A stretch of DNA of 64,000 bases, taken from a virus (Duplodnaviria > Heunggongvirae > Uroviricota > Caudoviricetes). This document shows, piece by piece, positions 3,601 to 59,846 of the stretch (positions are counted from its first letter, which is position 1; each line of letters starts with the position of its first letter). The notes below the pieces were generated by a model, which searched no databases, was not told where the DNA came from, and was given only the letters and a program-made list of their open reading frames with translations. Both the position numbers and the translations under genes were made by a program. The stretch lies in IMG/VR virus record IMGVR_UViG_3300027125_000001; one strand, written 5' to 3'.

Positions 3601-3934
3601 TAAAAAACCAACTATGGTGGGCAAGATCGATGACATTAGAGTTTATTCCTGCGCACTATCTGAAAGAGATGTCTTGGTGTTATCTAGAAAGAAACTTAAA
3701 TTCACCCCAGTCGAATTTAACGTCACGGCACCGACAAGGCAATATATAGAGACGATTGATAGGTTCAATACGCACAGGACTCCTGGGTTTAAGTCAAATA
3801 TTTTCAACATACGCATTTTGAATAGCGACTTGGATAGTGAAGATTTAAAAGAATCAATTGAGGACGCTATTTGCAAGGCATTGACGAAGATAACACCCGT
3901 TGGTGCTAAACTAAACAAAATCGTGTGGGAATAA
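662..3934 (+). CDS. large structural / host-recognition protein with C-terminal LamG/ConA-like lectin domain
   Basis: 1090-aa ORF; C-terminal segment ...GWHHLALTFDSANGVARLYVDGQTIDSISF... matches the LamG/pentraxin-type jelly-roll signature; sits in the structural block. Confidence 0.55.
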   Translation: MAVKYIDWKPVSVSYINNKLDLSDAVIGTSDGLIFSENNLASCIRSLDFNENSLVFLTDLIEAPTIETKRDEVKYQNNLIRNCIMTSASGYYLTRTRYDSANIATSAESTNNIFQLEFDTNDDALSIVSEDLNQRLYLTVDATGACAYFDVYNSDIEHLQKFKYILNTDTNTLVLFCSTCDTSGYRVVSYDESTPGTSLVTFETYNPLSANSCYSYLFKLKNVDLSIKPYTLNSSRYVKYESVIDNNDTIYGDMEIASSQSFPNNYLIATSFKDSGTYTPTTDYTGQLKSNAVSLKNLFTPEYKYSKRNDVVLNRDYQTVTLGDNIVDDAYNKVTTSYSASTKQFNLEPDKLTYFHYPYGTSTVPISSSGLIEAGAIAGLSPIKADRIWKSQFGYETSTNNGNSTTRNGTWLCSWLSGNNCQSIWVDRWYNPQQIEYKLALTADEPNPYISDAPSTLTFEAGVLYKYFHIGAEYSLKLIEDADFNNCDKVLEIKNWTKANLENATNSTEDNITYTRFNNSEFTFTGSEYISYSASESFFAKYNLTVAAWVYFDNWSNAAADQIIGNYYNGGYGLSYHTGIKDDFLIYTDSTYGHIFVTNTEGRYLFDKAIPGTNAAVTDMSVDGEGRAWILDDNQNKIFVYNPINNVFENIIDLPATTYKYARHDKYNNFYVYSSNKVFKKYDRNGDLLTTKPLAFLTNTFLPLSTLQGFDITGFFIDSASNIQPYIGTTAFEDLSGNYWHHFGSNLIKNNINYILHITSPDDLKVDGDLNLWMIKDDTLYHFDKDGSILLKRTYPYISSGPKKLAITRELTNSGWKDFIWVMDKQSIIKYSSSGRFEKIIKPTDYFSTGNYPGRDRNKLNLTFAKYCTKYNFYRDAKLLNPGLDDKNYITANFKITNGTSVSAKELIAPTNALSRGWHHLALTFDSANGVARLYVDGQTIDSISFAEGQYMLDYTNKNTFYIGNTNDSHDTKEYTWLLDKKPTMVGKIDDIRVYSCALSERDVLVLSRKKLKFTPVEFNVTAPTRQYIETIDRFNTHRTPGFKSNIFNIRILNSDLDSEDLKESIEDAICKALTKITPVGAKLNKIVWE

Positions 3935-3959
3935 ACAATACGTCATCTAAATATTAGAG

Positions 3960-6900: not shown

Positions 6901-9900
6901 CAATTTACGACAAAACCATAGGCGCGACTATTGAGCCATATGACGGCAGAATTTTAACACTCAACCCACAAACACATCGATTCACCTCCGCGCTTGTCCC
7001 TCTATCATCTAAATTCTGCATCATCACACCACCAGATTCGCCAGTAGAAGTTGATTATGAATTGAAGATGTACTCACAAGTTATTGGATGCCAATATGAT
7101 GATATCACCACACCAATCAAAGAATCAAAAACATATATCTATAAATCACCTAAATTAGGCAGACAGCTACAATATAGAGCGGATCCGTTTACTGTGTATC
7201 CAACAGCAGCATATAATTCAATGGTGTTGAATTTTTATCATACAACAGATGATGATGCTACGGACTCTGTCAGAATTAAAGCATTACCTGCGATCGAAGA
7301 TATGCTTGCATCCAGTAGTGCGAGCGCGTGCTCTATTATTTGGAATGTTCAATTCTTAGATATTGACGGAACGTATGCAACAACGAAATTTATACCAATA
7401 ACCGCAGCAGCAGGCACATCAAATGTAGTGAATATGTCTGCGATGCCATATGTAAGTTTCCAAACATTACCTCTATACACTAATGTTGTAGAGTATGCGC
7501 TCGAGCCTACAGAAATACCAAATACATTCACCAGAACACCAATTGTAAAAACAATTGCATCGCATAGCAAAACACAAGCAACATATGCTAATGAAATTAT
7601 AATTGATAAAATTGGAGTTAATCCAATAACTGTCAGTGTTTCTGTTACAGGAGCTTCCTTGTCAAACTATGGAGTTACTAATAATATCTTGACAGGGCAA
7701 ATGATATATTACCCGGATTTAGGTCAAGACAACACAACAAATCTATTAACACCTCAATACAGTTACAGCAGTACTGTTGTTAGCAGACTTAGTGTTGTAT
7801 CATATGATAGTGATATTGATAATAGTCTTCTATTAAGAAACTACTTCATCAAAAACAATAGAATCTATAATCCGCCAGTATACGAGAATACCACATTTAA
7901 TGTCGACAGCATCCGAGGTGTTTCGCTTTTATTTAAATGTGACAATAACGGAAATAATGAGCAAGAAATTCCTTTGGGTGTTGACAATAGAAACACGGCC
8001 TATTACAAAGTCAAAACATTGATGCCTAAAACTCTCAATGTAGTTGCACCAGAAAAAGATCGACTTACTATTCAAACATTCCACACCCCAGCATGTATTG
8101 CACCAACGCAAGTAATACAATTGCCAGTTAATTATTTCCCAAGTCAAGATATATTCTATTCTAAATTTAATATTGCAATCGCAGGTACTGCCGGATCTGC
8201 ATTCTATATTGGCAATATTGATACAATTAATACGCTTGTCGTATTGAGCTCAATAACACAACCATTTACAGCAGAATTAACTCCGTTGACTGTACCACAA
8301 GTCGAACATGGATGGATATCAACATCTGCATTATCTACTACATACTCAGTCGCATCTGCGACGCAAAAATTGGTATTTACATCCTCTACACTATCTGGAT
8401 TATCCGCCGGCATTGGTACGTTTAATTTATCATCAAAATTTACATATCAAAATGGAGAGTATGCTATTCTGAAGTCAAAACCACTCTATGTATATGTATC
8501 ACCACAAGCATCTGTCAATGAGCTCAGTGCAAAGGTGTGGACGGTTAATACATTTACCAACCAAGGACCGTCAGCAGTCAACACTCTAAACTCAATAACA
8601 GTTAATACACAATTAACAACCGTTGGAAATGGCCATACAGAAACACTTGTGTTAAGCTCGTTCGGAACACGATATAAAACATATGCATGGACCATTGGAA
8701 ACGAAAAGGAATATGTAACCAATTCACCAATTGCATCAGCCACAATCAAAGGAACTGCGGGTACATTATCTGCTATATCTGTCAAGGGGTATTATCTACA
8801 GCTAGATGTAGTCCCTTCATTAACTGCTCTTACATCGAGAGCGGATTATGATGATAATAAAACTGCATATGTCAATGTTAAAAATGCAATTAACTTACTA
8901 CAAGATCGCAATAATGTAATTTATACAGCAAACTCTAGCGTCACGTCTGATTATTTCAAGCCATTGCAATTTATCGATTTGGCAACGCCTGTGATATCAG
9001 CAGAGCCTGCAGATGTATATTTTTATTCGGATTCAATTAGTAGTTTATATGATGCAGCTGTATTTACTTCAAATAATAAAGGCGAATATGTTGTTGGGGG
9101 TACTACTACCTCATATGTAAACATTCGTAGTCTGGATACACAACAATCAATAACATATGGACCGATTGAGTATAGCTTAGTCTCTGGATTTAACAATAAC
9201 ACCATTACAATTCCTGATAATATCATCACAGATCCAGACTCATACAACTGTGCCGTCTTGGCTATCACATCTACAGATACAATAGTAACTAATGCGTACA
9301 ATTCTGTAGAAATTGGTAAAACAACAACATCTACAAGAGTAGACACAATTACGGCGATTAAGATACCAACATTCAATCTATTCTGGGATGAAGATTATTA
9401 TGCTATTGGGTCTGCATTGACAATCAAAAATTATTACAAAAATACAAACTGTGGTGGTGCTGATTATGGATTGGGCTCGATATCAATAACATTTAATGGC
9501 CAGACACAAGTATATCCAGCATCAACTGAAACGTTTGCGTTTAACAACCTTAATGACATTGGTGTATATTCTATCTCCGTATCTGCGAATACATACGGGC
9601 TCCTATCATCAATTCAAACGACAATTGAATCGAAATATGATAGAGCTATCAATGTAGTTAATGCATTTGACACGTTTGACAAAAATGCACGAACATACAA
9701 CGAACAATTAATATTCCCTTATAGTTTGGATCAAATCTATGTAGCACCAAACGAGATTGCCAATGCTAATAATATTAATAGTTCACTCAAGAAATTGCTT
9801 GCTAATTTTGATTATTTGATCAATAAATCAAAACTTAATGATACCAAGTTGCCAGTATTGTTTAATAAATGGTTAGGAGCGGAGAATAGCAAAGGCCATC

Positions 9901-11432
9901 GTTGGAATGATGTATCCGAATCAGATTGGGTTAATGTTTTCCCAGAATTCGACGCTACTGAATTTCATGACGTACAAGATGCCAAGATATACAATGATAG
10001 ATTAATTGTAATTGATCGGAATACAGATAATACAATCACGGATAGTATTAAAATATATGATTTGGATCGACTTTCGAGAAAATTAAACGATACTAATCTC
10101 GTCGGAGAAAAAGATTACGTAGGGAAGCTAGACTCCATTGCTATTAATGACGATGGAGAAATATACATAACAGACACCGCGAATCATTGCGTATATGTCT
10201 ACAGCATCGAATATAGTACTGGAACGTTTACATTTTTAAACAAAATCGGTGGTTTGGGCAATGCTCATCGCCCATATCGATTTAACACCCCGACTGATAT
10301 CCATTATAATCTAGGCAAGATATACGTGATTGACAAGAATAATGATGTCATTAAAGTTTATAATGATAAGATGCAATACTTCTATAACATTTCTCACGGG
10401 GAATGGGTAATGAAGAATAATTTAGTATCCATCACTACAGATACTGCAGCGAATGTATATGTATTAACAGCAGATGGCCAGATATACACATTCAATAACA
10501 CAGGCGAATATGTTAGCACAATATCAGGCATCGCCAATCCTTTTGCAGGCACTCCTGTTAAAATACATGCTAATAATATTGATGATGGTATAATTTATAT
10601 CGTATATAATACACACATATCCAAGATTACGTCTCAGGGGTATTATCTCGGATATTTTATGCCTTTATATACGCCATATGTAACTCAACTCAATAGCATC
10701 TGTCAGTATGGTAGAGGCGTTTATATTATCGACACCCGATCAATCTATAAAAATACAGATTTTGTTTCAATCAAGAGCATTATAAATGATATTGAAGGTG
10801 CACTATGGAAAGCTGATGATATTTTGATCGAAGAACAAGATTTGATTCAAGACTGGGTATATAATGTCGTATTTAACAGAATCAAAGATAATTTCGAATT
10901 GCTCGCCAAAAACATACATTCCAAATATGTGAGAAGCATCGATCTTGCTGGTAATATATCTATTGATATGGAACCGATGTTGACAGCAGAACTACCGCAA
11001 TTCGATTTCAGCCAATGTTTCATTGGACAAAATGAGCTTGTATTTACAGACGTTATCAATCGGGTAATTAAGCATCTGTATGCAAATCTTGATAAACTAA
11101 GAGTATCTCTTGACACAATCATTGGATCTGATATGTGTAAAAATAGCTGGTGCTGGTCTTGGGCATCGATGGGATCTTATGATCCAGTTAAAAAGAATTG
11201 TATCGTAAATCCAATTTCATTTATTGAATTGAGATCAGATAGTCCTGGTATTGGTGGTAGAACATGGGAACAGATGTCATCTGTTGGTAGTGGTTGTTGC
11301 GAAGTGGTAACACTTAGCGGCACACGCATTCCAGAAATACATCAAGGTTATATGGCACTTTCTCCGAATGGGTCTGTTCTTTCCTTGGGTGGTAATTCTA
11401 GTATTTTGTCACTTTATTCTTTGTCAAGCTAA
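3960..11432 (+). CDS. giant virion structural protein (tail fibre / adhesin-like, 2490 aa)
   Basis: Uninterrupted 7.4 kb ORF rich in Thr/Ser/Asn beta-strand-like repeats; NHL/beta-propeller-like segments (YITDTANHCVYVYS..., IYVIDKNNDVIKVY...). Confidence 0.55.
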   Translation: MFVEVSTLTAWPNESFRVTHSALSTTGSGPIYSIAGYTPLTIAINIDGIHNSASLNAVIVPRLTYTTGATVEAVITELAQSTLSGVPSFTIKSTTSGLYLPFNDHSTFTSRIFNKSIFTFSGTEGQQQDQLASMALTAGSAYYIIPSHLTYTDNREPSAIIASGRLDLSARLRNWEYDLFTSSTLETGQANTSPYNFAFLNYAVSPASYTPITTNQISALSAIINTPKVYRHVDVNVATTVDGASSFSNNLLSVAGASQSLGEELLPGSIVLEFSYDSPLYKDSEYTFDEIPATYGYSSGYRETLLKELSSVTVPVISSGTAFVRDIPMTGANPVSGNLVGRDPIFNEYFVNSATSVINYQTGAFALFLNTGYKLTGNALLRGFYDNKYDDFAGYPTYQVIGQSPNDHELSLIDKSVRTVGNNVFARYDVSVYNLSSIVDRNDYPTYPSTITSIKAYNYASSIQIGLNALTSFNAVSSISFSSTNTPLWLFTYTSTITSNTNTSKVNGLQMVFNTLSARTAVTSNSAFITPHIVSNYGTTILPFASSDAYYGYLQFNCLGAVTKVDNRTQTPTLSVYKIESNGQLTPYEVSMNVYDITYPYELRRSANQTYQVETSAISAQTAFLSGDLSMSLRDVALFYETDASDLYDDNKIALQLYGLNTAIKTSIFDQSISFINGGAKVFINLIQQTIKELAGVSRSSISLDDFDTEIFYKLTTTGNYFKNVQTTFNEECRAYILQSTSSSTANEFKTPIESLCAELSPVLSSLAAAGSTGNDTLSFVLTNDLFSIGKLIGSTSITAEEYNVIIDLLTKSFVFAAWPAAYDVASSLTLSNPAYLGTNLNIVKLIFSLGLETVFDLYVKAFKDTLRRGAITQTKYDEILKYYADQNYARFNYEISLIKTAIDYPTLIKGTLNPNYSSTNYISIAYYLATAEKELGTLFEYVYAFNTNANETVFNNFFRNFNLIDNKVGMLNIRYSTGNTIYDKTIGATIEPYDGRILTLNPQTHRFTSALVPLSSKFCIITPPDSPVEVDYELKMYSQVIGCQYDDITTPIKESKTYIYKSPKLGRQLQYRADPFTVYPTAAYNSMVLNFYHTTDDDATDSVRIKALPAIEDMLASSSASACSIIWNVQFLDIDGTYATTKFIPITAAAGTSNVVNMSAMPYVSFQTLPLYTNVVEYALEPTEIPNTFTRTPIVKTIASHSKTQATYANEIIIDKIGVNPITVSVSVTGASLSNYGVTNNILTGQMIYYPDLGQDNTTNLLTPQYSYSSTVVSRLSVVSYDSDIDNSLLLRNYFIKNNRIYNPPVYENTTFNVDSIRGVSLLFKCDNNGNNEQEIPLGVDNRNTAYYKVKTLMPKTLNVVAPEKDRLTIQTFHTPACIAPTQVIQLPVNYFPSQDIFYSKFNIAIAGTAGSAFYIGNIDTINTLVVLSSITQPFTAELTPLTVPQVEHGWISTSALSTTYSVASATQKLVFTSSTLSGLSAGIGTFNLSSKFTYQNGEYAILKSKPLYVYVSPQASVNELSAKVWTVNTFTNQGPSAVNTLNSITVNTQLTTVGNGHTETLVLSSFGTRYKTYAWTIGNEKEYVTNSPIASATIKGTAGTLSAISVKGYYLQLDVVPSLTALTSRADYDDNKTAYVNVKNAINLLQDRNNVIYTANSSVTSDYFKPLQFIDLATPVISAEPADVYFYSDSISSLYDAAVFTSNNKGEYVVGGTTTSYVNIRSLDTQQSITYGPIEYSLVSGFNNNTITIPDNIITDPDSYNCAVLAITSTDTIVTNAYNSVEIGKTTTSTRVDTITAIKIPTFNLFWDEDYYAIGSALTIKNYYKNTNCGGADYGLGSISITFNGQTQVYPASTETFAFNNLNDIGVYSISVSANTYGLLSSIQTTIESKYDRAINVVNAFDTFDKNARTYNEQLIFPYSLDQIYVAPNEIANANNINSSLKKLLANFDYLINKSKLNDTKLPVLFNKWLGAENSKGHRWNDVSESDWVNVFPEFDATEFHDVQDAKIYNDRLIVIDRNTDNTITDSIKIYDLDRLSRKLNDTNLVGEKDYVGKLDSIAINDDGEIYITDTANHCVYVYSIEYSTGTFTFLNKIGGLGNAHRPYRFNTPTDIHYNLGKIYVIDKNNDVIKVYNDKMQYFYNISHGEWVMKNNLVSITTDTAANVYVLTADGQIYTFNNTGEYVSTISGIANPFAGTPVKIHANNIDDGIIYIVYNTHISKITSQGYYLGYFMPLYTPYVTQLNSICQYGRGVYIIDTRSIYKNTDFVSIKSIINDIEGALWKADDILIEEQDLIQDWVYNVVFNRIKDNFELLAKNIHSKYVRSIDLAGNISIDMEPMLTAELPQFDFSQCFIGQNELVFTDVINRVIKHLYANLDKLRVSLDTIIGSDMCKNSWCWSWASMGSYDPVKKNCIVNPISFIELRSDSPGIGGRTWEQMSSVGSGCCEVVTLSGTRIPEIHQGYMALSPNGSVLSLGGNSSILSLYSLSS

Positions 11433-11454
11433 TCCATTAAGTAAATACAATTAT

Positions 11455-13641
11455 ATGGCATGTATTGTTAATTTTACGGATCTATCTTCGTTAGCGTCTT
11501 TGTCCTCATCGGCCCAGATGTTGATTTATCGTGATAATGGCCAGCCAGGGGCAGATGGATTTGGTCGAGTTACATTGTTGAATTTAAATAATAGTCTGCC
11601 TCTATTTTCGTTAGTTAGTTCTAATTCTAGCTTTTGGGCCGGCGGGTCGCAGGCATTTGTTACGACGTATGACGAACTCATAGCAGCTAAAAACAACTCA
11701 TCAATTCAGACTATAATTCTAGGCAAAGATATTTCCTTTAGCGCGCCGGGCAATCTTTCAATTCCAGCGCGATGTTCTATCATTTTTAATGGATATAAGT
11801 TCATCAGAACAGGTTTAACTATTTTGTTTATCGAGGGCGAGGTGGTAGCCCCTCGGGTGCAAATATTTAGCAACTGGCCGGCTAGTACTATAAAAGGCAC
11901 AATGAGAAATAGTGAAATATTTCCGGAGTGGTGGGGTCTACAGGGGTCTACAGTGCACGACGGTAGACATGATATTGCAATAAATTGCGCTATTCGTACA
12001 TCAGATCCGTCCTTTAGTATCGGCAGAACTATCAGCTTTGCTGCTGGTATTTATTATGTCGGAAGGCCGCTAGATGCTACAGAATTAGCAATTCGATTTA
12101 AGGGTGCTGGTTCTAATGCTACTAAAATAATCGCATCCAAATTATGGACATCTGATACTTGGCAACCAACGACCCGATTCAGATTTTGGAGTAATTTCAT
12201 GAAATACAGCGGGACTACCAACTTTACTGCTGCATGTTCTGTCCCTGGTGGCACTAAATTAATTACCCCAACCGGTGGCTCATTTGAATTTTTAAGCGGC
12301 GGCCAGGCACGCATAACAAATTCGCCACTGTATAACGGCACCCATACAGTTAGCGGTACAACAGCAGCAGTGGCATTAACATCAATAGTTCTTTCTGGGA
12401 CTACATTTGTAGGTACAACTACAGGATTCGCCACACCAATCACATTAGATACTGAAATGGAAACAGCCAGCTGTGCTTCTTCTCTATTTTGGATTGGGGG
12501 TGGAAACGGGAGCTACTGGTCTGGGGTAGCTCCGATGTCTGGTGGGGGCGGGGCGCGATACTGGAGTGGTGTAGAAGGCATGACCATCGTTGCTGCGGAG
12601 GCTACAATTAATAATCCAACTAAAAGAATTAGCGGAATTTCATGGAAACATAATGTCGAAGAGAATACTATTATCCGTGATGTGGATATTCAGTATTTTT
12701 CCGGCATGGGAATTGGCGGCGGCATGTATGACACTTGGCGTAATGCTGGCGACGCGACGAAACAAGATGGTGGTATTATCAATGGATTGCAAATTCAGAA
12801 TTTCTGGATTAAAGAAGCAACCCGTCGTGGAGCGATACCTATCTTTATTAATAAAAATACATCAGTTTGTAATATTAAAACTGGGACAATAGATTGTTCT
12901 ACCACATCAGCAGCGCTAACTGCATCTTTCCCATACATAAGAACTTGGCCATTATTTGGAATATTAATTTATCAAGGTGACGGGGTGTCTGTGGACAGCG
13001 TCCATTTCGAGGGCATGGGCACTGGTATTCATATAGGAACAACAAACGATGGAGGTTCAATGACCAGACTTGCTTCATTGGAGAGCGAACGATTGATGGA
13101 CTTTGGTGTGACTGATACAGACAGACAAGCTTTAATTCCACTGTCATCCAAGATAGTGCCTTTAGCTACACAAATGACCCAGCAATCTTTTGGATACCTT
13201 AATCACTTATCTTCTGTTAATAATGGATTTTTCTCTGATTTAGGTTCTTACCTATTTAGATATAGTGCATTAGTTACAATCGGTACTTCATTTGAATATG
13301 CCGCATTTATCAGTACATATCCTAATAATCAGTTTTCGACTATCGATATAACTAACCTAGCAGGCTATACTCAATATCTTTTGAGAGATTTACAATATGG
13401 CATTGATATCCCTGGGTATGGGGGTGGCGGCAGCAATTATGCGGAGTACAACAGCCGAATTTGTCGATATTCGAGAGGAATTGCATATGTTCCTGCTTCT
13501 ACTGCACCTGGGGTGTATCCTCCGTCTGGATCCGGTCAAGTTTTCAATGGATATAGGCAATCAACGAGTTCAGGCACATGGATTACTAACGCCAAACCAG
13601 TAGGTTCTTGGGAGAAAACATATTACCAATTAATTTTATAA
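11455..13641 (+). CDS. tail-spike-like protein (Gly-rich, possible parallel beta-helix)
   Basis: ORF frame open from 11368 and overlapping the upstream gene; first ATG after the upstream stop at 11455 chosen; Gly-rich GGG(N/A)xxYWSGV repeats, structural-block context. Confidence 0.4.
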   Translation: MACIVNFTDLSSLASLSSSAQMLIYRDNGQPGADGFGRVTLLNLNNSLPLFSLVSSNSSFWAGGSQAFVTTYDELIAAKNNSSIQTIILGKDISFSAPGNLSIPARCSIIFNGYKFIRTGLTILFIEGEVVAPRVQIFSNWPASTIKGTMRNSEIFPEWWGLQGSTVHDGRHDIAINCAIRTSDPSFSIGRTISFAAGIYYVGRPLDATELAIRFKGAGSNATKIIASKLWTSDTWQPTTRFRFWSNFMKYSGTTNFTAACSVPGGTKLITPTGGSFEFLSGGQARITNSPLYNGTHTVSGTTAAVALTSIVLSGTTFVGTTTGFATPITLDTEMETASCASSLFWIGGGNGSYWSGVAPMSGGGGARYWSGVEGMTIVAAEATINNPTKRISGISWKHNVEENTIIRDVDIQYFSGMGIGGGMYDTWRNAGDATKQDGGIINGLQIQNFWIKEATRRGAIPIFINKNTSVCNIKTGTIDCSTTSAALTASFPYIRTWPLFGILIYQGDGVSVDSVHFEGMGTGIHIGTTNDGGSMTRLASLESERLMDFGVTDTDRQALIPLSSKIVPLATQMTQQSFGYLNHLSSVNNGFFSDLGSYLFRYSALVTIGTSFEYAAFISTYPNNQFSTIDITNLAGYTQYLLRDLQYGIDIPGYGGGGSNYAEYNSRICRYSRGIAYVPASTAPGVYPPSGSGQVFNGYRQSTSSGTWITNAKPVGSWEKTYYQLIL

Positions 13642-13942
13642 TATAGGTGGCAATAAAATAAAGACACCCGGTAAATAGGTTATATGGGGATTGAAGAAAT
13701 AGTCCGAACTGCATGGCGACATGTAGAAGCAAAGTTTAAACGGCTTTGCGATAACAATACTTGCTGCTGCGCAGGGTTATCACGGCCCATATCGGGTGAA
13801 TTCAAGGGACAACTCTTCGGAGTCAATCTTGAGCCAACTCTAATAAAAGTCCCAGTATTATTAGAAAGGTGCAGAGACTAGATGGTGAGCCGACTTAGCA
13901 ATACTCTATCCACGAGCGCCCGACAATCCCCATTATAATTTT

Positions 13943-14743
13943 ATGCCGACATTTAGCGAATCTATTACATCAATTGACCCGCGCATCTGTGCAGGCAATA
14001 CCCTGTCGACAATTAATCAAAATTTTGCGTTGCTTGATTACAAGCTAACCAATATTTCTCTATCGGCTGATTTATATTGGAATGCTTTATACACAATAGC
14101 CAAAGAGACTTCCAGCACATGGGCGGATGTTGCAACTGTTGTAAAATCAAACTCTGCAAATTGGAACGATGCGTATACCACCGTATCTTCATATAGTGCT
14201 TGTTGGTTAAGACCAATATCTCTTATTTTCCCATTGACACCAGATAATAATGCCATTAATCAAACTACATTCATTAACAGCATTTCATCGTGGTTAAATT
14301 CTAACTTCCCTGTTACGGCTACTATTGATTCGAATACAGTAACGAATTATTGCAAAGGCCAAGAAATATTTGTCTTTACATTGGGGTTCTATAAAGATCT
14401 AGAAACAATCGCACCAGATACAAGATACCTGACAGCTAAGTGCCGAGCTGCTGTTACCTGGAGCTATCGTAGCTGCAGTATTCGAGGTCGTTGCGTAACT
14501 AATACAAGAACAGTAATCGGCCATGACCGCAATAACGTGGCAAGCAGACGCGATAATAAAGCTACAGGATTTGATGCAGCAGGAGGCACCTCGGTATCAT
14601 TATTAGCGCAAATTGCAGGTCTTGAAAATCTGAATTCATCTATAGTGAATTACATTCCAGCCGTTTACCAAAATTACTATAAATTTGTAAACAATAGCGG
14701 ATCTCGCTGGCAGTATGTTACGACCACTCCTTTAAGTAGCTAA
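13943..14743 (+). CDS. hypothetical structural protein
   Basis: 266-aa ORF, start within 2 nt of the next structural gene (operon-like). Confidence 0.35.
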   Translation: MPTFSESITSIDPRICAGNTLSTINQNFALLDYKLTNISLSADLYWNALYTIAKETSSTWADVATVVKSNSANWNDAYTTVSSYSACWLRPISLIFPLTPDNNAINQTTFINSISSWLNSNFPVTATIDSNTVTNYCKGQEIFVFTLGFYKDLETIAPDTRYLTAKCRAAVTWSYRSCSIRGRCVTNTRTVIGHDRNNVASRRDNKATGFDAAGGTSVSLLAQIAGLENLNSSIVNYIPAVYQNYYKFVNNSGSRWQYVTTTPLSS

Positions 14744-14744
14744 C

Positions 14745-17360
14745 ATGTCATGTTCGTATCCACAAATTAAAGACACTGAAAGCGCAGGTTCGGCCATTGT
14801 GCTTATCAATGATCATTTTAAGTGGATAGATAAACAAACGGGTGTTATATACACACAGACAAAAAAAATATCTGAAGCTGTTCCGATTCTGCAGGATATT
14901 GTAGCAACAACTGCATATTTGCTTGATACATCTACAGGTAAAGAAAAATACAAATCGTTAAACGATATGGTGTCGATAACCAGATCGACTTCATGTTTCG
15001 CAGTAAAGCCTGTAACAGTATTTTGCCCAATCAAAATAACAGACCGGTCCACCTTCGCAACAACTATTTCAAAATGGCTCGAAACTACGTTTCCAGCAGA
15101 ATCTGCAGACTGCCGTTTGAATGATTTATATGTATTTGCATTAAGACAATATGCAGATGAAACAAATAGACCGAATCCTATCCTGGCACCGTATTTTGTA
15201 TCCAAATTTAATGCGGTTAACAATAACGAAAGATTCTTAATGGGTCGATTTATCAAGACAGGATACCCCATACTCAAATGGGAATACTGGCCTACAATGA
15301 ATCCTTTTTATTGCCCAGAGTCCGTCATTGAGGTTTGTGAACCAGAACCAGAAGGTTTTAGCTATTATTATAAATTTGCATCTTGTTCAGTTCCTGGTCT
15401 TGCTTTTTATTCATCTAATGATTATAGCCATTTAGTAGGTCTTGGGGTTGTTCTGGACAAATACCCAGATCAAAGATTCTTAGTAAGTAAAGTATCGGTT
15501 GCAGATAAAGCAATCACTACAAATCTTAATCCTATTTTCACAACAAAGAAAGGTTGTAGTGATACTTGTTATATCCTAACCAATACGTTTACTCAGGAAA
15601 AAATCGTAGCAACAAATGATGAATTCCAATTTTATGCTGGATCTGATACTACAGTGCAAATAGATGGTCTTGCTGGTGACTGGACTGTAGTAGCATCATC
15701 TGAAGATTGCGAATGTGGGTGTGAATATAGAATCAATAGAGCAGCACCCGTTATAATCAAATTGACAAATTGCTGTTGGAAATATCAGCCATGCCCAGAT
15801 GTTGTTAACGGAACTCTTCGAAAAGAATTATTTGTCATTGATAATAAACGCATTTTAATCCCAGGCAAGGCTGTTACTCTTGCAGAGTATCCAGGAGTAA
15901 GATGGTATATTGAAAAGGTAGTTTACGATAATCAGCAGATAACAGAAGAGTATACTGTTGTAGATCTTTATGAAGATTGTAATTCACAAGAAATCCCAAA
16001 ACCTAAAGATACACTGCTTTACAAATTAACACCGTCGTGTTTTAATACATCAAAGACTGTATTGTATTCTAAGAATCCATTACTCAAACCATATCTAGGA
16101 TCTGTCGTATATATCAATCTCGATAATCGAAATTACTATTATGTGTCGATAGTTCCTCAAACATCCCAGTTGATTGAAAATGTCACCATAATAGATGTAT
16201 ATCAATATGGATATGAATTACCAGAATATCAAGCAGGCGAAAAAATAAAACAAGCCACTGTTCTATTCTCTGTATCTGCACTGCCTGATTACAGCGTTAG
16301 AGGTGCCGAGTATTATGTTCGTCCTAATATCAACTATACTAATAAGCCAGTAGAAACATGTAAGCGCAGATATTCATTTTGGAATATTGCCGTTGCTAAT
16401 GTATTAAGCTCACAAACATTTGCCGCTGATGCCCAAAAATCAAGAAGCTGGAATTTTAACTATGTTGAAAATTATTCGAAAATATTAGATGAATGGTATG
16501 TAGGGGATTCGTGGTTTAATTTTGCAAACGATCAATTAGACGAATTAGCATCCATTGTAATGGGTAAAACTGCATCAGAGACCGATACATACCTAAAAGA
16601 AAATAATCTCTATTTTGAAATTGAAGTCGAGTTTAAAAGGTATCGCAAAACATTGAGAGGTTCAAGAAACCAATTATACGGAGAAGAAACAGATTCAATT
16701 GCTTATATCGGTCCGGTTACATTATATCCAGCAACTATAACCAATGCTAGTGTTGGATTTGGTGATTGTGGTGAAATTTTAGTTATGCAAATGTGCGGCT
16801 CTACTATCAAATACGGGGTAGATGCAGCAGATGGATTTGTATACAGCGGTCAGTATCTTATTTATAACGGTGAATATTACGCCGTTACATATGGATTGCG
16901 CTCAGATATCGCTACCATCATAACCCTGACAACAGGAAATACTACTATCATCGATAGCGCAACATATAACTCGTATTGCAATGATGTCTTGATTACGCCA
17001 ACCGCCACACCAACAGCCACGCCAGTTGTACCAATTGTACCAATTGTGCCTACAATCCCAACGACGATACCGTCAATAACATACGATACTAGCAATACTT
17101 TAGCTGCACTTTACTTCACAGTACCATATGATGGCGGATCGCCGATCACAATATACCAATACACACTAAGTGATCCACTTGATCCTTATACAATTTGGAC
17201 AGATGCAGTGGAGACTGAACCTCCTCTACTTATTGATGTAGGAAGCTATGGTGTATACACGATTTACGTCCGCGCAGTAAATGAGGTTGGTCCTGGCGGA
17301 TACACATCAGTAGAAGTAACTACATCACCGTCGCCGACACCTACCCCGACGCCCGTGTAA
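14745..17360 (+). CDS. structural protein with Pro/Thr-rich linker and FN3-like C-terminal domain
   Basis: 871-aa ORF; C-terminal TPTATPTATPVVPIVPIVPTIPTT linker followed by a ~90-aa beta-sandwich-like segment ending SPSPTPTPTPV. Confidence 0.45.
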   Translation: MSCSYPQIKDTESAGSAIVLINDHFKWIDKQTGVIYTQTKKISEAVPILQDIVATTAYLLDTSTGKEKYKSLNDMVSITRSTSCFAVKPVTVFCPIKITDRSTFATTISKWLETTFPAESADCRLNDLYVFALRQYADETNRPNPILAPYFVSKFNAVNNNERFLMGRFIKTGYPILKWEYWPTMNPFYCPESVIEVCEPEPEGFSYYYKFASCSVPGLAFYSSNDYSHLVGLGVVLDKYPDQRFLVSKVSVADKAITTNLNPIFTTKKGCSDTCYILTNTFTQEKIVATNDEFQFYAGSDTTVQIDGLAGDWTVVASSEDCECGCEYRINRAAPVIIKLTNCCWKYQPCPDVVNGTLRKELFVIDNKRILIPGKAVTLAEYPGVRWYIEKVVYDNQQITEEYTVVDLYEDCNSQEIPKPKDTLLYKLTPSCFNTSKTVLYSKNPLLKPYLGSVVYINLDNRNYYYVSIVPQTSQLIENVTIIDVYQYGYELPEYQAGEKIKQATVLFSVSALPDYSVRGAEYYVRPNINYTNKPVETCKRRYSFWNIAVANVLSSQTFAADAQKSRSWNFNYVENYSKILDEWYVGDSWFNFANDQLDELASIVMGKTASETDTYLKENNLYFEIEVEFKRYRKTLRGSRNQLYGEETDSIAYIGPVTLYPATITNASVGFGDCGEILVMQMCGSTIKYGVDAADGFVYSGQYLIYNGEYYAVTYGLRSDIATIITLTTGNTTIIDSATYNSYCNDVLITPTATPTATPVVPIVPIVPTIPTTIPSITYDTSNTLAALYFTVPYDGGSPITIYQYTLSDPLDPYTIWTDAVETEPPLLIDVGSYGVYTIYVRAVNEVGPGGYTSVEVTTSPSPTPTPTPV

Positions 17361-39077: not shown

Positions 39078-39152
39078 TGGCTCCTCAGGAAGGTTACGCT
39101 CCTTCATAATCCCGATTAACAGTCGGGTGCATTGCTAGTCTGCCACTGAGGA
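39078..39152 (-). tRNA. tRNA-Asn (GUU), atypical T-loop
   Basis: Anticodon stem CCCGA/TCGGG, loop CTGTTAA; T-arm GAAGG-AGCGTAA-CCTTC (non-canonical loop); U1-A72; CCA encoded. Confidence 0.5.
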
Positions 39153-39647: not shown

Positions 39648-39742
39648 TGGTACTCCTGGCCGGATTCGAACCGACAACCGCGCCCTAATCTGGGGCATAC
39701 GAAAGGTATAAGCTTTCCGCTCTACCAATTGAGCTACAGGAG
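39648..39742 (-). tRNA. atypical class II tRNA, anticodon UAU, with long hairpin variable arm
   Basis: 95 nt; D-arm GCTC-AATTGGTA-GAGC; anticodon stem GAAAG/CTTTC, loop CTTATAC (U33, A37); variable hairpin TGCCC-CAGATTA-GGGCG; T-arm GTCGG-TTCGAAT-CCGGC; G1-U72, A73 CCA. Confidence 0.5.
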
Positions 39743-39757
39743 CACATATGTTGAAAT

Positions 39758-39832
39758 TGGTTGCGGGAGATGGACTTGCACCACCGACCTCCTGGTTATG
39801 AGCCAGTTGAGCTACTACTGCTCTATCCCGCA
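39758..39832 (-). tRNA. tRNA with anticodon CAU (Met, fMet or Ile-lysidine type)
   Basis: D-arm GAGC-AGTAGTA-GCTC, anticodon loop CTCATAA, T-arm GGTGG-TGCAAGT-CCATC (variant T-loop), U1-A72, CCA encoded. Confidence 0.6.
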
Positions 39833-39965: not shown

Positions 39966-40661
39966 GATAAAATTATTTTTGCAATACTCATTAATTACTC
40001 TCATGTCTGGCCACGTGATCGTTTGCGACTTCCACGAAATTGGCCTGTACCATATGAATTCAATGTTGTTATTGACACAATCACTTAACGAGAAATTCAA
40101 TATATTTCTTATTTCTTCTTTAGTTAGATTTGTTTTATTTGAGTAATTTTCTATTAAAAATTTTTCATAGTACCTAACATCATAGTTTGGCTGCAATGCG
40201 AAAAATTTAAGCATCTCATCAATTTTCCCACCTATAATAATATCTAAAAAATAAGTGGTAGATGTCTCTATGCCAGCGATAGCTGTTAGCTTTTCGCGAT
40301 ACGACTTCGCCAGTATCTCTAAATATCTATCATAATCTTGACATAGTATATCAAAACGAGTCCTTAATACATATTCATATCCGTTTTCTTTAAGATACTT
40401 CAACCCATTATGTACAGTAATAAACTGTGGTTTATATATTTCTTGTTGTTTTACACTATTGTAAATGATTTTAAAATTGTTGTTTTTTAATTTGTCGACA
40501 TATTCAGGTGATTCATTTTCCCATATTGATGCTATTTTATTTGTCTGATTTTTGGTCTGTTCAATTAGAACATCAATGGTGTCACCGTGTACGTTTCCTG
40601 TGAATAAAATTGCAGTGTTTGGCATATAAATTAGTACCTCCGGAAGGACTTGCACCTTCAC
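39957..40661 (-). CDS. hypothetical protein inside the tRNA array
   Basis: 234-aa ORF between tRNA-Pro and the next tRNA. Confidence 0.4.
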   Translation of the reverse strand: MKVQVLPEVLIYMPNTAILFTGNVHGDTIDVLIEQTKNQTNKIASIWENESPEYVDKLKNNNFKIIYNSVKQQEIYKPQFITVHNGLKYLKENGYEYVLRTRFDILCQDYDRYLEILAKSYREKLTAIAGIETSTTYFLDIIIGGKIDEMLKFFALQPNYDVRYYEKFLIENYSNKTNLTKEEIRNILNFSLSDCVNNNIEFIWYRPISWKSQTITWPDMRVINEYCKNNFIWM

Positions 40662-40706
40662 CGTGTTGCTTATGAAACAACCATTCTACTTTTGAATTAC
40701 AGAGGC
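40634..40706 (-). tRNA. tRNA with anticodon CAU (second copy; Met/fMet/Ile2 type)
   Basis: 5' 15 nt identical to the tRNA-Lys gene (GCCTCTGTAATTCAA); anticodon stem GTTGT/GCAAC, loop TTCATAA; T-arm GAAGG-TGCAAGT-CCTTC; G1-U72; only A73-C74 encoded. Confidence 0.55.
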
Positions 40707-52812: not shown

Positions 52813-53163
52813 ATGAATCCCCTTAATGATTTCGGAAATGCAACGATATATGTCTATCATGAAGATGGGCACTATGCCGAACGAAGTTTCTCCAGAAGAA
52901 GCTACGACACATTAACAGCACGATATGATAGGTTCCAAGGCTGGGTGTCTCCATATAGAGATATTGTATATTGGAATCGAGTCTATCGCATAGGCAATAA
53001 CAGACCAACAGTGGTGCCCGACCATATCGTCGTATGGAAACAAGGGGATGCAACTGAGTATAAATACAACAAAGTTGTCATGTCGTTTGTCAATAAAATT
53101 TTGTCATGGATCCCACGAAAATGGGCAGTTCGACATAAAAGATGGCGCTGGCTTAAATGCTAA
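52813..53163 (+). CDS. hypothetical protein
   Basis: 116-aa ORF. Confidence 0.35.
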   Translation: MNPLNDFGNATIYVYHEDGHYAERSFSRRSYDTLTARYDRFQGWVSPYRDIVYWNRVYRIGNNRPTVVPDHIVVWKQGDATEYKYNKVVMSFVNKILSWIPRKWAVRHKRWRWLKC

Positions 53164-53203
53164 AATAGTTGATACACATCACACCTCGAGCTATATTAAC
53201 TAC

Positions 53204-54229
53204 ATGAAGCTCGCCTCTATTGAAACCATCGCTGCTGTCAAACATCATCCCAATGCAGATTCGTTGGATCTCGTTGGAGTTCTAGGATATGAATGCATCA
53301 CTCTTAAAGACAAATATAAGGTAGGTGATCGTGTAGTCTTTATCCAGCCCGATACTGTTCTTCCAGATAAGCCCTGGGCTGAAATCTTTAAGAAAAAGTC
53401 GTCGCGAGTCAAAGCTATCAAGCTTCGAGGCGAATGGTCGTTTGGTATTATCATGGGACTTACCGAAGTAGACTCGTTATTCGATCTTCAAAATGTCGAA
53501 GTTGGTACTGAGATTAGTTCCCATATTGGGGTATATAAGTACGACCCACCTGCTCCAACCTCTCTGGATGCTAAAGGGAATCTGCCGTATAGTCTGGTGA
53601 AGACTGACGAAGAACGATTCCAGAACCTTATCGGGTTTCTCCCGTATGGTGAAAAGGTTGATGTCACCCTGAAGATTGATGGGCAAAGTGCTACTTACTA
53701 CGCACGCAAAGATCCGTCGACCGGAGAATGGTCTACTGGTGTTACTAGTCGCAATCTAGAAATCAAACCAGAAACTAATAACAACTATACCAAGATCGTG
53801 AAGAAATACAATATTCTCGAGAAGCTTCTTGAGTATTGCAAACGGAACGACGTATCACTTGCTCTTCGAGGTGAAATCTATGGAGGCAATATCCAAAATT
53901 TCAGCAAGAACCCACACAGCAAAGGTCCCTTGGACTTTGCCGTATTCAGTGTCTTCAATCTTAATACCCTGAAGTATGAAAAGGAAGGCGACGCTGATTA
54001 CTCCCCGAACGTGGCGGCTGTATTACAAATTCCTCATGTGCCGTTTGTAAACGACAATTACACTGTTGACTTTGAACACTCTGTGAGGCCGTTGCTATCC
54101 GAAGATATGATTAACTTCTACCAAAAAGGAATCAATCAAATCGATGGCAAACCCTTTGAAGGTGTAGTAGTTCGACACAGCAAAGGTTCGTTCAAGATCA
54201 TCAATCTCGATTACGACTCAAACAAATAA
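53204..54229 (+). CDS. KxDG nucleotidyltransferase-family ligase (putative RNA ligase) with N-terminal tRNA-binding-like OB domain
   Basis: N-terminal AAVKHHPNADSLDLVGV...KVGDRVVFIQPDTVLP resembles Myf/EMAP tRNA-binding OB domains; motif I VTLKIDGQSATYYA; ORF open from 53048, start ATG 53204 chosen. Confidence 0.4.
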   Translation: MKLASIETIAAVKHHPNADSLDLVGVLGYECITLKDKYKVGDRVVFIQPDTVLPDKPWAEIFKKKSSRVKAIKLRGEWSFGIIMGLTEVDSLFDLQNVEVGTEISSHIGVYKYDPPAPTSLDAKGNLPYSLVKTDEERFQNLIGFLPYGEKVDVTLKIDGQSATYYARKDPSTGEWSTGVTSRNLEIKPETNNNYTKIVKKYNILEKLLEYCKRNDVSLALRGEIYGGNIQNFSKNPHSKGPLDFAVFSVFNLNTLKYEKEGDADYSPNVAAVLQIPHVPFVNDNYTVDFEHSVRPLLSEDMINFYQKGINQIDGKPFEGVVVRHSKGSFKIINLDYDSNK

Positions 54230-56942: not shown

Positions 56943-57368
56943 ATGACACCAACAAACGATATCGTAGAGATTGCCAAACGCATTGCAATAAAGGCTCACG
57001 AAGGGCAATTTCGGCGAGATGGTGTTACTCCTTATATTAAACATCCCGAAGCTGTTGCATCGAGACTCACAGACAATCCAGGTGTCGAAGCAGTGGCATG
57101 GCTTCATGATGTTCTGGAAGATACGTCAGTGACAGTCGAAGATCTACGAGATCAAGGGATTTCGAACCAAATCATCGATATCGTCATCATGTTGACAAAA
57201 AAGAAAGACATTCCATACGACGAGTATATTAAAACCATTGCGTCGAACCGATTCGCAACAGAAGTCAAAATTGCAGACATGCTAGCAAATCTTAGTGATA
57301 GCCCAACAGAGGACCAAGTACTAAAGTATATGAAATCATTGCTTTATCTTCTCGACTCAAATAAATAA
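56943..57368 (+). CDS. HD-domain (p)ppGpp hydrolase-like protein (small alarmone hydrolase, RelA/SpoT-HD type)
   Basis: KAHEGQFRRDGVTPYIKHPEAVASRL...AWLHDVLEDTSVTVEDL matches the SpoT/Mesh1 HD hydrolase core (H...HD...D). Confidence 0.6.
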   Translation: MTPTNDIVEIAKRIAIKAHEGQFRRDGVTPYIKHPEAVASRLTDNPGVEAVAWLHDVLEDTSVTVEDLRDQGISNQIIDIVIMLTKKKDIPYDEYIKTIASNRFATEVKIADMLANLSDSPTEDQVLKYMKSLLYLLDSNK

Positions 57369-57386
57369 ATCTATCACACGAAACAT

Positions 57387-57462
57387 GGCCACGTAGTCCA
57401 ATGGCAGAGGCAACGGACTTAAAATCCGTAGAGTGTCGGTTCGAGTCCGACCGTGGCTACCA
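57387..57462 (+). tRNA. tRNA, anticodon UAA (Leu-type) on a class I body
   Basis: Acceptor GGCCACG/CGTGGCT (G1-U72), anticodon stem ACGGA/TCCGT, loop CTTAAAA, T-arm GTCGG-TTCGAGT-CCGAC, A73 CCA; 76 nt. Confidence 0.6.
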
Positions 57463-58445: not shown

Positions 58446-58952
58446 ATGCAAGCAACCACAATCAAGAGACCAAAGTTCAGCGAAGATCAAATTGATTATA
58501 CTGCCCCTGATGTTCAGAGGCTCATTGGTAGGTATTGTGATTGGCTAGATGCTTGCAATGAAGGTTCTTCTGATGAAGAATGCATCTCTGATATAAAAAA
58601 GGTTTTCGGAAGGATCTCAAGATATGGGGTATTTACTGATGATGGCTTCAGTCTGGCTAAGTACATGGAAGACCATCTATATTTAACAGGAGATTCTAAT
58701 CTAGTAGAAATCCTCGATGATGCACCAGATATTGCACGGTCACATCATCGGGCTGCTGTTCTCAAGTGGACCACTGAAAACAATTTAATCATACCGGAAA
58801 ATATTGTAGGAAGTAAGTGCATTACCAGTGGAACATATAAGGGGATGTATGTAGTAGGGATCAGGGGTGATGAATATAAGGTAGTGTTGAACGAAAACCA
58901 AAATAAATCCGGGGGATACATTGTTGAATTTGAAAGCATCCAGTTTGAGTAA
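58446..58952 (+). CDS. hypothetical protein
   Basis: 168-aa ORF. Confidence 0.45.
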   Translation: MQATTIKRPKFSEDQIDYTAPDVQRLIGRYCDWLDACNEGSSDEECISDIKKVFGRISRYGVFTDDGFSLAKYMEDHLYLTGDSNLVEILDDAPDIARSHHRAAVLKWTTENNLIIPENIVGSKCITSGTYKGMYVVGIRGDEYKVVLNENQNKSGGYIVEFESIQFE

Positions 58953-58970
58953 TCTTTAGAAAAAATTTAT

Positions 58971-59253
58971 GGGGGTGTAGCTTAAGGGTCAAAGCAGCCG
59001 ACTTTAACGGGTCTTCTTATTAGAAATAGTAAGTTAGCAGAACTTAAATTCAGGGAACGCTTAACGGATAATGCCGATGCCAATCCTGAGCGAAGCCTCG
59101 AAAGAGGAACGTGCAGAGACTATAATAGTTCAATCTTACCGAGTCATGTCGAAGATTAAGGGATAGTCCAGACCACAAACTATACAGGCGGCGAAAGCCG
59201 TAGTGGTAAGCATAATCGGTTGATTGTGGGTTCGAATCCCTCCGCCCCTACCA
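58971..59253 (+). tRNA. tRNA (anticodon CAU after splicing) interrupted by a group I intron in the anticodon loop
   Basis: 5' exon GGGGGTG-TA-GCTT-AAGGGTCA-AAGC-A-GCCGA-CT; 3' exon CATAA-TCGGT-TGATT-GTGGG-TTCGAAT-CCCTC-CGCCCCT-A-CCA; the two exons give a complete 76-nt cloverleaf. Confidence 0.65.
59004..59210 (+). ncRNA. group I self-splicing intron (~207 nt)
   Basis: Exon ends in U, intron ends in G; candidate P1 GACU/GGUC; R-like CAGAGACTATAA and S-like GATAGTCC elements able to form P7 (GACUA/UAGUC); two GAAA-tetraloop hairpins; no ORF. Confidence 0.6.
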
Positions 59254-59327
59254 TATCACTAACATAAGCAGTTGAGTAAACAAACACCACGTTGTATAGT
59301 TATTAACAACCAAAGCATATAATAACT

Positions 59328-59846
59328 ATGATCGATCTGCGTAAGAACACTAAGGTGTCTATGAATAGGCAACCTTTGAAATCTTCTTCTATCTTTGCCT
59401 GTAGAGGTACTAATGTTAAATGGCCAACAATTCGCAAGGCATATCTTAATGATGCGAATGTAGATGCACTGAAAGAACATGCTACCACCAAAGGAAGATC
59501 TATTGTCTTTCTCGACGGCGAGTATATCACGAAGCTTAATAGATATGTAGGCAAGGCCCCGGAAGAAAGAGCAGTGTTCTTCGAATACATGGTTAGTGAC
59601 AAGAATGTGAAAGGAGCGATATTTCTTCTCTGCTGGATTGGTAATTTCCATAATGGTTCAATAGCACACTTTGCGCCTCAATATCCTCAAATGAATTGTT
59701 GGATCGAGACAATGGGATTCGAAGCAGCGACCGCCTTTTTCGAAAAGAAAGCATTTGAATTATACAAAATCATTGTGAGTATTCTTCACGAAGGCAAACC
59801 AATCATCGACGACGAAGTTCGCAAATTTATTTTAGCAAATCAGTAA
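59328..59846 (+). CDS. hypothetical protein
   Basis: 172-aa ORF. Confidence 0.45.
   Translation: MIDLRKNTKVSMNRQPLKSSSIFACRGTNVKWPTIRKAYLNDANVDALKEHATTKGRSIVFLDGEYITKLNRYVGKAPEERAVFFEYMVSDKNVKGAIFLLCWIGNFHNGSIAHFAPQYPQMNCWIETMGFEAATAFFEKKAFELYKIIVSILHEGKPIIDDEVRKFILANQ

Follow-up and report, generated by a model that had tools for sequence, protein, structure and literature searches.

Group I introns that interrupt tRNA genes with a CAU anticodon between tRNA positions 33 and 34 are already known in bacteria: they occur in cyanobacterial tRNA-fMet(CAU) and in the tRNA-Met(CAU) of Patescibacteria, and in the bacterial survey that describes them group I introns lie only within the anticodon loop, while 81% of bacterial tRNA introns are of type IC (PMC13011429). 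All phage introns known at the time of a 2014 review were located in protein-coding genes, despite the many tRNA genes that phages carry (PMC3984707), and the surveys of tRNA introns cover bacterial and archaeal genomes and do not include phages (Williams 2020, doi 10.1101/2020.01.27.920355; PMC13011429). Here, we describe a split tRNA(CAU) gene in a stretch of 64,000 nucleotides (nt) from the IMG/VR virus record IMGVR_UViG_3300027125_000001 (the window), for which an earlier reading of the sequence (the original prediction) had proposed a compact group I intron in the anticodon loop. We conclude, with a probability of roughly 0.85, that this locus is an elongator tRNA(CAU) gene that carries a compact, 207-nt group I intron of the bacterial-tRNA type, without an open reading frame (ORF), between U33 and C34, in what is most likely the genome of a large virulent phage. 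In the full-text literature that we searched, including papers on jumbo phages, we found no report of a group I intron in a phage tRNA, with subscription journals largely outside this coverage; the phage-tRNA context appears to be new. Nothing about the mechanism is out of the ordinary; what was not expected is the context, which is apparently widespread and which cultured phages with related introns make directly testable.

The split gene consists of the following parts:

58971-59003, plus strand: 5' exon of tRNA(CAU), 33 nt, tRNA positions 1-33, GGGGGTG-TA-GCTT-AAGGGTCA-AAGC-A-GCCGA-CT
58971-58977, plus strand: 5' strand of the acceptor stem
58980-58995, plus strand: D-arm
58997-59001, plus strand: 5' strand of the anticodon stem, GCCGA
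59002-59003, plus strand: anticodon-loop bases C32 and U33
59004-59210, plus strand: group I intron, 207 nt, without an ORF, between tRNA positions 33 and 34
59211-59253, plus strand: 3' exon of tRNA(CAU), 43 nt, tRNA positions 34-76, CATAA-TCGGT-TGATT-GTGGG-TTCGAAT-CCCTC-CGCCCCT-A-CCA
59211-59213, plus strand: anticodon CAU, followed by A37 and A38
59216-59220, plus strand: 3' strand of the anticodon stem, UCGGU
remainder of the 3' exon, plus strand: variable loop, T-arm, 3' strand of the acceptor stem, discriminator A and encoded CCA

These coordinates, with exons of 33 and 43 nt and a 207-nt insert that follows a U and ends in G, agree to the base with the original prediction, as does the assembly of the two ends into a 76-nt cloverleaf: ARAGORN calls the joined exons as a tRNA(CAU) with a normal cloverleaf, and the 7-nt anticodon loop, the T-loop, the discriminator and the encoded CCA are all present. 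The segment from 58971 to 59253 had also been described as free of ORFs, and we found none longer than 43 amino acids overlapping it on either strand. Among the possible 207-nt excisions that keep a 7-nt anticodon loop, the boundaries 59003/59004 and 59210/59211 are the only ones that place both a U before the 5' splice site, U(-1), and a G at the end of the intron (omega-G). A standard ARAGORN run called 29 other tRNAs in the window and missed the split gene because introns are not looked for in that mode. When introns are allowed (ARAGORN -i), both the window element and its nearest intron-bearing relative (L284/L308; related loci are given by number) are labelled 'tRNA-Stop(tta) i(37,207)', which would make the gene an ochre-suppressor tRNA(UUA) with a canonical 37/38 intron, an exon ending in ...GACUUUA and an intron ending in ...GCAU. 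We consider this assignment very improbable: it places an A before the 5' splice site and a U at the end of the intron, which breaks the U(-1)/omega-G rule, and the observed P1 helix pairs GACU rather than UUUA. Moreover, the bases after GACU are CGAUA in L009 and UAGUA in L017, so that the anticodon would differ in each relative, whereas the CAU reading is constant, and homologues without the intron read CUCAUAA. Boundary shifts of two to four bases are a documented artefact of ARAGORN and tFind (PMC13011429).

The 207-nt insert is directly supported as a group I intron by its boundaries, its core helices and their covariation, its homology to accepted group I introns and the existence of an intron-less allele. 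Its helices are as follows (covariation refers to the alignment of 59 distinct homologues described below; MFE, minimum free energy):

59000-59003 with 59010-59013, plus strand: P1, exon GACU with guide GGUC, U33 (59003) paired as U.G with G59010 at the 5' splice site
59004-59009, plus strand: P1 loop UUAACG, which varies freely among relatives
59016-59022 with 59027-59033, plus strand: P2 hairpin CUUAUUA/UAGUAAG with GAAA loop at 59023-59026, from the MFE fold
59040-59044 with 59127-59131, plus strand: P3, both-side changes in 5 of 5 pairs, enclosing the P4-P6 domain
59050-59055 with 59084-59089, plus strand: P4, 99.7% paired in the 59 homologues
59059-59060 with 59079-59080, plus strand: P5
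59065-59067 with 59074-59076, plus strand: P5a, covarying
59090-59091 with 59111-59112, plus strand: P6
59096-59099 with 59104-59107, plus strand: P6a, covarying, with GAAA loop at 59100-59103
59116-59123 with 59163-59169, plus strand: P7, a pseudoknot with P3 read from the sequence, formed by G59116-C59169, bulged A59117 and GACUAU (59118-59123) with AUAGUC (59163-59168)
59133-59142 with 59149-59156, plus strand: P8 hairpin, outer stem AUCUU/AAGAU and inner stem CGA/UCG, both-side changes in 8 of 8 pairs
59172-59176 with 59203-59207, plus strand: base helix of P9, ACCAC/GUGGU
59188-59192 with 59197-59201, plus strand: P9 hairpin with GAAA loop at 59193-59196
intron end, plus strand: UAAG, with omega-G at 59210

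Both pairings named by the original prediction are therefore in place, namely P1 (GACU with GGUC and a U.G pair at the splice site) and the R-like and S-like elements that form P7 (CAGAGACTAT at 59114-59123 with ATAGTCC at 59163-59169); its count of two hairpins with GAAA tetraloops falls short, as we found three (L2, L6a and L9). In P7, the pair G59118-C59168 adjoins the bulged A59117, an arrangement that we take to be the guanosine-binding site of group I introns, and P5 and P5a are separated by a receptor-like CUUAAC/GAUG internal loop. The helix inventory lacks P7.1/P7.2, P2.1 and P5abc, J7/3 is 3 nt long, and L2 and L9 are GAAA. Small IC3 introns in bacterial tRNAs have this inventory, and the window intron may belong to that subgroup.

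The Rfam model for group I introns (Intron_gpI, RF00028) matched the locus over its full length (model positions 1-253) with 40.3 bits and an E-value of 5.4e-9 when the 421 nt from 58900 to 59320 were searched with permissive filters, which corresponds to about 1e-6 when the E-value is linearly rescaled to the whole 64-kb window. Introns with the same P3-P6 pattern score 42-50 bits at lengths of 207-215 nt and 65-104 bits when they have longer peripheral helices; the shortfall of the window intron is therefore due to its compactness, that is, to short peripheral helices rather than to a missing core. In blastn searches, the core (about 59047-59123) shares 77-88% identity with annotated phage group I introns, including those of the RIO-1 primase and of the beta22 and pVa5 thymidylate synthases; for the P4'-P6-P7 core, identity to these introns is 78-88% over 47-77 nt. 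We further used the window and two related haplotypes, in all three of which 35 of 35 proposed core pairs are canonical, to build a covariance model of the core (R1, comprising P3, P4, P5, P5a, P6, P6a and P8). This model matched a single copy in the window and 78 in the other related loci that were searched, and it recovered introns that lie above the Rfam cut-off (L001-L003 with 90-104 bits, L047 with 97 and L085 with 83). In an alignment of 59 distinct homologues, to which P7 was added as a pseudoknot, standard pairs occupied 94.0% of cells, compared with 24-46% when the partners were slid by one to three columns; both sides had changed in 25 of the 35 core pairs, and the covariation score of 0.313 compared with at most 0.052 for slid partners and was reached by none of 500 shuffles. 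P7, which is not part of the model, was still 77.8% paired, with both-side changes in 4 of its 6 pairs. When the window intron is folded without constraints, its MFE structure contains P2, P4, P5, P5a, P6, P6a, P7, P8 and P9. The same fold pairs the guide, GGUCU, with an AGACC after P7, which we judged to be a coincidence because AGACC is unchanged in relatives with a different guide.

The peripheral elements likewise behave as structured parts. The stem of the GAAA-capped hairpin that corresponds to P2 differs in sequence across the 12 phage copies examined, and the P9 region takes the same shape in MFE folds of 11 phage copies, with a different hairpin stem in each. The base helix of P9 covaries (ACCAC/GUGGU, ACUAC/GUAGU and GUAAC/GUUAU), and the inner stem of P8 reads CGA/UCG, CAG/CUG and UGG/CCA in the three haplotypes. 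In addition, the window contains a single copy of the conserved 3' module, where shuffles predict 0.00, and at least 16 independent viral contigs show the split-tRNA architecture again. We therefore regard it as very probable that the insert is a group I intron that splits a tRNA(CAU) gene.

It is important to point out that several observations weigh against this reading. Searched across the whole window at the gathering score, Rfam returned tRNAs and no Intron_gpI, since the match of 40.3 bits lies below the 50-bit cut-off; the covariance-model check suggested by the original prediction thus yields a match, but a sub-threshold one that is found only with permissive filters. The covariation alignment was fitted to the structure of the model and therefore favours that structure, P7 excepted, and the MFE z-score of the intron is modest (-1.93). 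No P10 pairing with the 3' exon is conserved in register among the haplotypes. Finally, the first pair of the tRNA is G1.U72 and its T-stem is mismatched at U50.U64, which could be signs of a decaying gene.

The interior of the segment also bears on the possibility that the locus is a transfer-messenger RNA (tmRNA) or another tRNA-like structured RNA instead of a split tRNA. Its GGGG start, its tRNA-like 3' end with CCA and a weak Rfam tmRNA match of 13 bits point in that direction, but this match consists of the acceptor and T-arm alone, with 312 model positions skipped, the window yields no tmRNA call by ARAGORN, and there is no tag-peptide frame, no resume codon with a tag ORF and no tmRNA pseudoknot. 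As the interior fits a group I core and the ends assemble into a full cloverleaf, anticodon arm included, the original prediction was right to discard this idea, the probability of which we consider negligible.

The boundaries of the split gene are independently supported by its relatives. Scanning for the spliced anticodon arm showed that uninterrupted tRNA(CAU) genes are numerous in viral contigs. The closest, L128, is identical to the joined exons of the window at 70 of 76 positions, and L223 and L140 are identical at 68 of 76; all three share the unusual G1.U72 and U50.U64 and run unbroken through CUCAUAA. Among relatives that do carry the intron, the nearest (L284/L308) shares its length of 207 nt and its P1 loop, and compared with the window L284 carries compensatory changes in P4 (G-C to A-U), P5a, P6a, P8 and P9 of the intron and at pairs 1-72 (G.U to A-U), 6-67 and 28-42 of the tRNA, so that both tRNA and intron are evolving under structural constraint. 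When viral contigs were searched with a 17-mer that spans the 5' junction, all matches (L005-L008) were attributable to chance.

These comparisons argue against the alternative that the intron is real by descent but has lost splicing, which would leave the locus as the relic of a dead tRNA gene. The T-stem mismatch, the sub-threshold Rfam score, the weak P10 and the lack of an endonuclease would all fit a relic. The split copy might moreover be dispensable, as the window has a tRNA-Ile(UAU) and, besides the split gene, two more tRNA(CAU) genes. However, G1.U72 and U50.U64 also occur in the intron-less homologues and are partly repaired in L284, the 35 core pairs, U(-1), omega-G and the bulged-A/G-C site of P7 are all intact in the window copy, and the changes that separate it from L284, L009 and L017 overwhelmingly compensate one another in intron and exons alike, which indicates continuing structural selection. 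Among the three haplotypes the intron (83-89% identity) is even more conserved than the exons (76-80%). We therefore assign the relic a low probability and consider it likely that the window intron splices itself, a claim that we hold somewhat less firmly than that of its group I identity.

Catalysis and expression of the intron, like the phage origin of the window, are features that we infer. In the proposed mechanism, a precursor would be transcribed from the plus strand, and the intron would fold into P2-P9, including the P3/P7 pseudoknot, while the guide GGUC would pair with the exon-final GACU to form P1, where U33 would be part of a U.G wobble. The P7 G-C pair would bind a free guanosine, which would then attack after U33, the terminal G59210 would take its place in the guanosine site, and the 3'-OH of U33 would attack the bond before C34, which would ligate the exons and release the intron. 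Ordinary end-processing could follow, with the CCA already encoded.

The joined exons encode an elongator-type tRNA(CAU), that is, either tRNA-Met or the lysidine-modified tRNA-Ile2. Initiator tRNAs are marked by a mismatch at 1-72, three G-C pairs at 29-31/39-41 and A11-U24. We rejected tRNA-fMet as a candidate on the grounds that the window tRNA has G1.U72 (A1-U72 in L284), a C at position 11 and no GGG/CCC run in the anticodon stem, which reads G27.U43, C28-G42, C29-G41, G30-C40 and A31-U39 next to a D-stem of GCUU/AAGC. Of 5426 E. coli genomes, 5424 have their tRNA-Ile(CAU) gene as the top match, and the anticodon arm closely resembles that of E. coli tRNA-Ile2. Global identity does not separate the two elongators (51 of 76 positions to Ile2 and 49 of 77 to Met), and pairs 4-69 and 5-68 are G-C here versus C-G in E. 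coli Ile2.

Three other tRNAs of the window stand out. The tRNA-Ile(UAU) at 39648-39743 on the minus strand is 96 nt long (Rfam tRNA, 58 bits) and has a long extra arm (…CUUUCG-UAUGCCCCAGAUUAGGGCGCGG-UUGUC…); such a type-II-like variable arm is unusual and bears on the need of the phage for a lysidine tRNA-Ile2. The other tRNA(CAU) genes, at 39758-39832 and 40634-40706 on the minus strand, both have the T-loop UGCAAGU, with a G in place of the near-universal U of pseudouridine-55. The former is fMet-like, with A11-U24 and 59 of 77 positions identical to E. coli fMet, and the latter has the loop UU-CAU-AA and G1.U72.

Comparison with described introns places the window intron with the Azoarcus-type tRNA-Ile(CAU) introns (IC3), with which it shares P1-P9, the absence of P7.1/7.2 and P5abc, and GAAA loops on P2 and P9. 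The Azoarcus intron, about 205 nt long, is inserted at 36/37, after CAU; the window intron lies three bases upstream of that site and has the guide GGUC versus GUG(A). The likeness to Azoarcus drawn by the original prediction thus holds for anticodon, size and core lineage, but not for the insertion site. A pairwise alignment to an Azoarcus sequence was mis-registered and was discarded. We found the P3-P7 core pattern in 62 bacterial contigs, in 51 of them inside tRNA genes; most of the 62 loci are gammaproteobacterial tRNA(CAU) genes in which the intron follows CAU. Given that the pattern is shared with these proteobacterial tRNA(CAU) introns, the window intron belongs to this lineage. ARAGORN in intron mode labelled 40 of the bacterial loci tRNA-Gln(CUG). 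When the U(-1)/omega-G rule was applied to L045, L064 and L085, they became tRNA(CAU) genes with an intron at 36/37, and the tRNA-Gln(CUG) labels on about 40 loci (among L043-L104) look like a systematic mis-assignment.

The cyanobacterial tRNA-fMet introns, which we compared by site and description, resemble the window intron in the anticodon CAU, in the U.G/omega-G rule for the splice sites and in the insertion between U33 and C34, so that in both the 5' exon ends in ...CU and the 3' exon starts with CAUAA. Their host tRNA is an initiator with a 1-72 mismatch, whereas that of the window is a non-initiator with G1.U72 and an anticodon stem (GCCGA/UCGGU) without three G-C pairs; they reside in cyanobacterial genomes rather than in phage-like DNA, and some of them encode a PD-(D/E)XK endonuclease (PMC13011429), while the window intron has no ORF. 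Group I introns are likewise phage-borne in T4 td and nrdB, in thyA of Bacillus phage beta22, in the primase gene of Pseudoalteromonas phage RIO-1 and in thyA of Vibrio phage pVa5. In contrast to the window intron, however, these interrupt protein genes and often contain or adjoin homing endonucleases, whereas here the host is a tRNA and we found no endonuclease, with no ORF inside the intron and no Pfam or PHROG match for the flanking ORFs.

To investigate how far this intron type extends among viruses, we examined its 3' module (GTCCAGACCACAAAC...TAGTGGTAAG, up to the 3' splice site), which is present in at least 118 IMG/VR viral contigs, with a conserved intron end ...UAGUGGUAAG that closes with omega-G. 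The host tRNAs were classified for 128 occurrences (those viral contigs, the loci fetched earlier and the window) by fixing the 3' splice site and trying each upstream U. This assigned about 60 of the 128 to tRNA-Leu(UAA) at 34/35, about 19 to tRNA(CAU) at 33/34 and 14 to tRNA-Arg(UCU) at 34/35. In these phage introns the guide tracks the insertion site: GGUC accompanies an exon ending in GACU (33/34), GAGU one ending in ACUU (34/35), GCAG one ending in CUGU (35/36) and GUGA one ending in UCAU (36/37). A guide that matches the exon at each site is what a working, retargeted intron would require. Two contigs (L024 and L041) carry three copies each within about 6 kb; those of L024 (179-307, 5430-5560 and 5914-6053) are hosted by tRNA-Asn(GUU) at 35/36, tRNA-Leu(UAA) at 34/35 and tRNA(CAU) at 33/34.

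A related arrangement is found in cultured jumbo phages. Specifically, a tRNA(CAU) is split at 36/37 in Klebsiella phages Muenster (L002, MT708547 302,709-303,223), KP13-7, RCIP0023 and phiKp_21, in E. coli phages TH47 (L003) and Turkey5, and in the record OU509535 (L001), by introns of 228-231 nt that score 90-104 bits with Rfam and about 60 bits with R1. As in the window, the host is a phage tRNA(CAU), the core is homologous and related phages are polymorphic for the intron, sister phages PBECO4, A4, the Salmonella SD-series and Erwinia phage Hallingskeid having the uninterrupted allele. Unlike the window intron, these introns lie at 36/37, are longer, with longer P8 and P9, and come from cultured phages of enterobacterial hosts. 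The split gene sits in an unannotated gap of a tRNA cluster: it is unmarked in all five annotated GenBank records among the seven, the other two being without any annotation. The published tRNA count of Muenster (6) would therefore be one short.

On balance, we favour the view that the window intron belongs to a large, hitherto undescribed radiation of compact group I introns that lack an endonuclease and have settled in phage tRNA genes, although we hold it with clearly less confidence than the identity of the intron itself. In this radiation, a single P7-P9 module and core would have been combined with guides retargeted to 33/34, 34/35, 35/36 and 36/37, and the hosts would include tRNA(CAU), tRNA-Leu(UAA), tRNA-Arg(UCU), tRNA-Asn(GUU), tRNA-Thr(UGU) and tRNA-Ile(UAU), with two contigs having a site at about 25/26. 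Most likely, the intron is a selfish passenger whose lineage would spread among phage tRNA genes by guide change and without an endonuclease of its own. Taken together, the window, the viral contigs (at least 118) and the seven sequenced phage records indicate that phage tRNA genes are a regular home of one compact intron lineage. Since intron-split genes escape standard tRNA finders or are mislabelled by them, phage tRNA inventories are under-counted. Anticodons may be mis-assigned as well, given that ARAGORN returned a stop suppressor here and tRNA-Gln for bacterial tRNA(CAU). Sister phages with and without the intron provide a tractable system for studying how endonuclease-free introns spread. 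If the radiation is real, it would overturn the textbook view that phage introns are confined to protein-coding genes, and cultured systems such as Klebsiella phage Muenster and E. coli phage TH47 could serve to study mobility without an endonuclease and could show whether the timing of splicing affects the tRNA supply of the phage.

In the two contigs with the 25/26 site (L032, about 10333-10554 on the plus strand; L035, on the minus strand, 4370-4591 as oriented), an intron of the same type lies outside the anticodon loop of a tRNA-Leu(UAA), at about position 25/26, where the D-arm ends and the anticodon arm follows. The junction reads ...GGUAGACAU / intron...G / A-ACAGACUUAAAAUCUGU, and splicing in silico yields a complete tRNA-Leu according to ARAGORN.

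The window itself encodes 30 tRNA genes, ribonucleotide reductase (RNR) alpha and beta subunits, thymidylate synthase (ThyA), a DNA ligase, an RNA ligase and a helicase-like ATPase, along with many ORFs without a family match. We strongly infer that it is a phage genome, most likely of a large virulent phage. The alternative is that the element is as described, but that the window is a bacterial or mis-binned fragment: no virion gene (capsid, portal, terminase or tail) was recognised among the window ORFs tested, megablast of 14 kb of the window gave no nucleotide match to sequenced phages, and bacterial chromosomes commonly contain the same intron core. We give this only a small chance, as 30 tRNA genes in 64 kb together with RNR, ThyA, ligases and many ORFans are the make-up of large virulent phages, RNR is closest to that of T4-like cyanophages (at less than 50% identity), and a related intron splits this kind of tRNA in cultured jumbo phages. 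In addition, the ORF that flanks the split gene downstream (59328-59846) has 11 relatives, which lie on IMG/VR viral contigs of 90-227 kb. In a search for an empty site, these 11 showed no further local similarity and no tRNA or intron nearby, and the upstream flanking ORF had no relatives.

A few kb upstream of the split tRNA, the window encodes the RNA ligase (53048-54229, plus strand; PHROG 968, E 8e-52) and an HD-domain phosphohydrolase (56943-57368, plus strand), which could together form a tRNA-repair module against anticodon nucleases; a tRNA-Leu(UAA) at 57387-57462 lies between these genes and the split tRNA. A possible thirty-first tRNA, uncalled by ARAGORN, is found at 39081-39152 on the minus strand (Rfam tRNA, 47.9 bits). 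At the other end of the window, four very large ORFs (1090, 2490, 757 and 871 amino acids; 662-17360, plus strand) have no PHROG match at E <= 1e-5 and may encode proteins of the virion, or proteins that are injected, from a novel lineage of jumbo phages. Finally, in a contig from a metagenome-assembled genome of Pseudomonadota (L047), a group II intron domain (RF00029) scores 46 bits, above its cut-off, at 1121-1236 on the minus strand, about 770 nt from a tRNA that is split by a group I intron.

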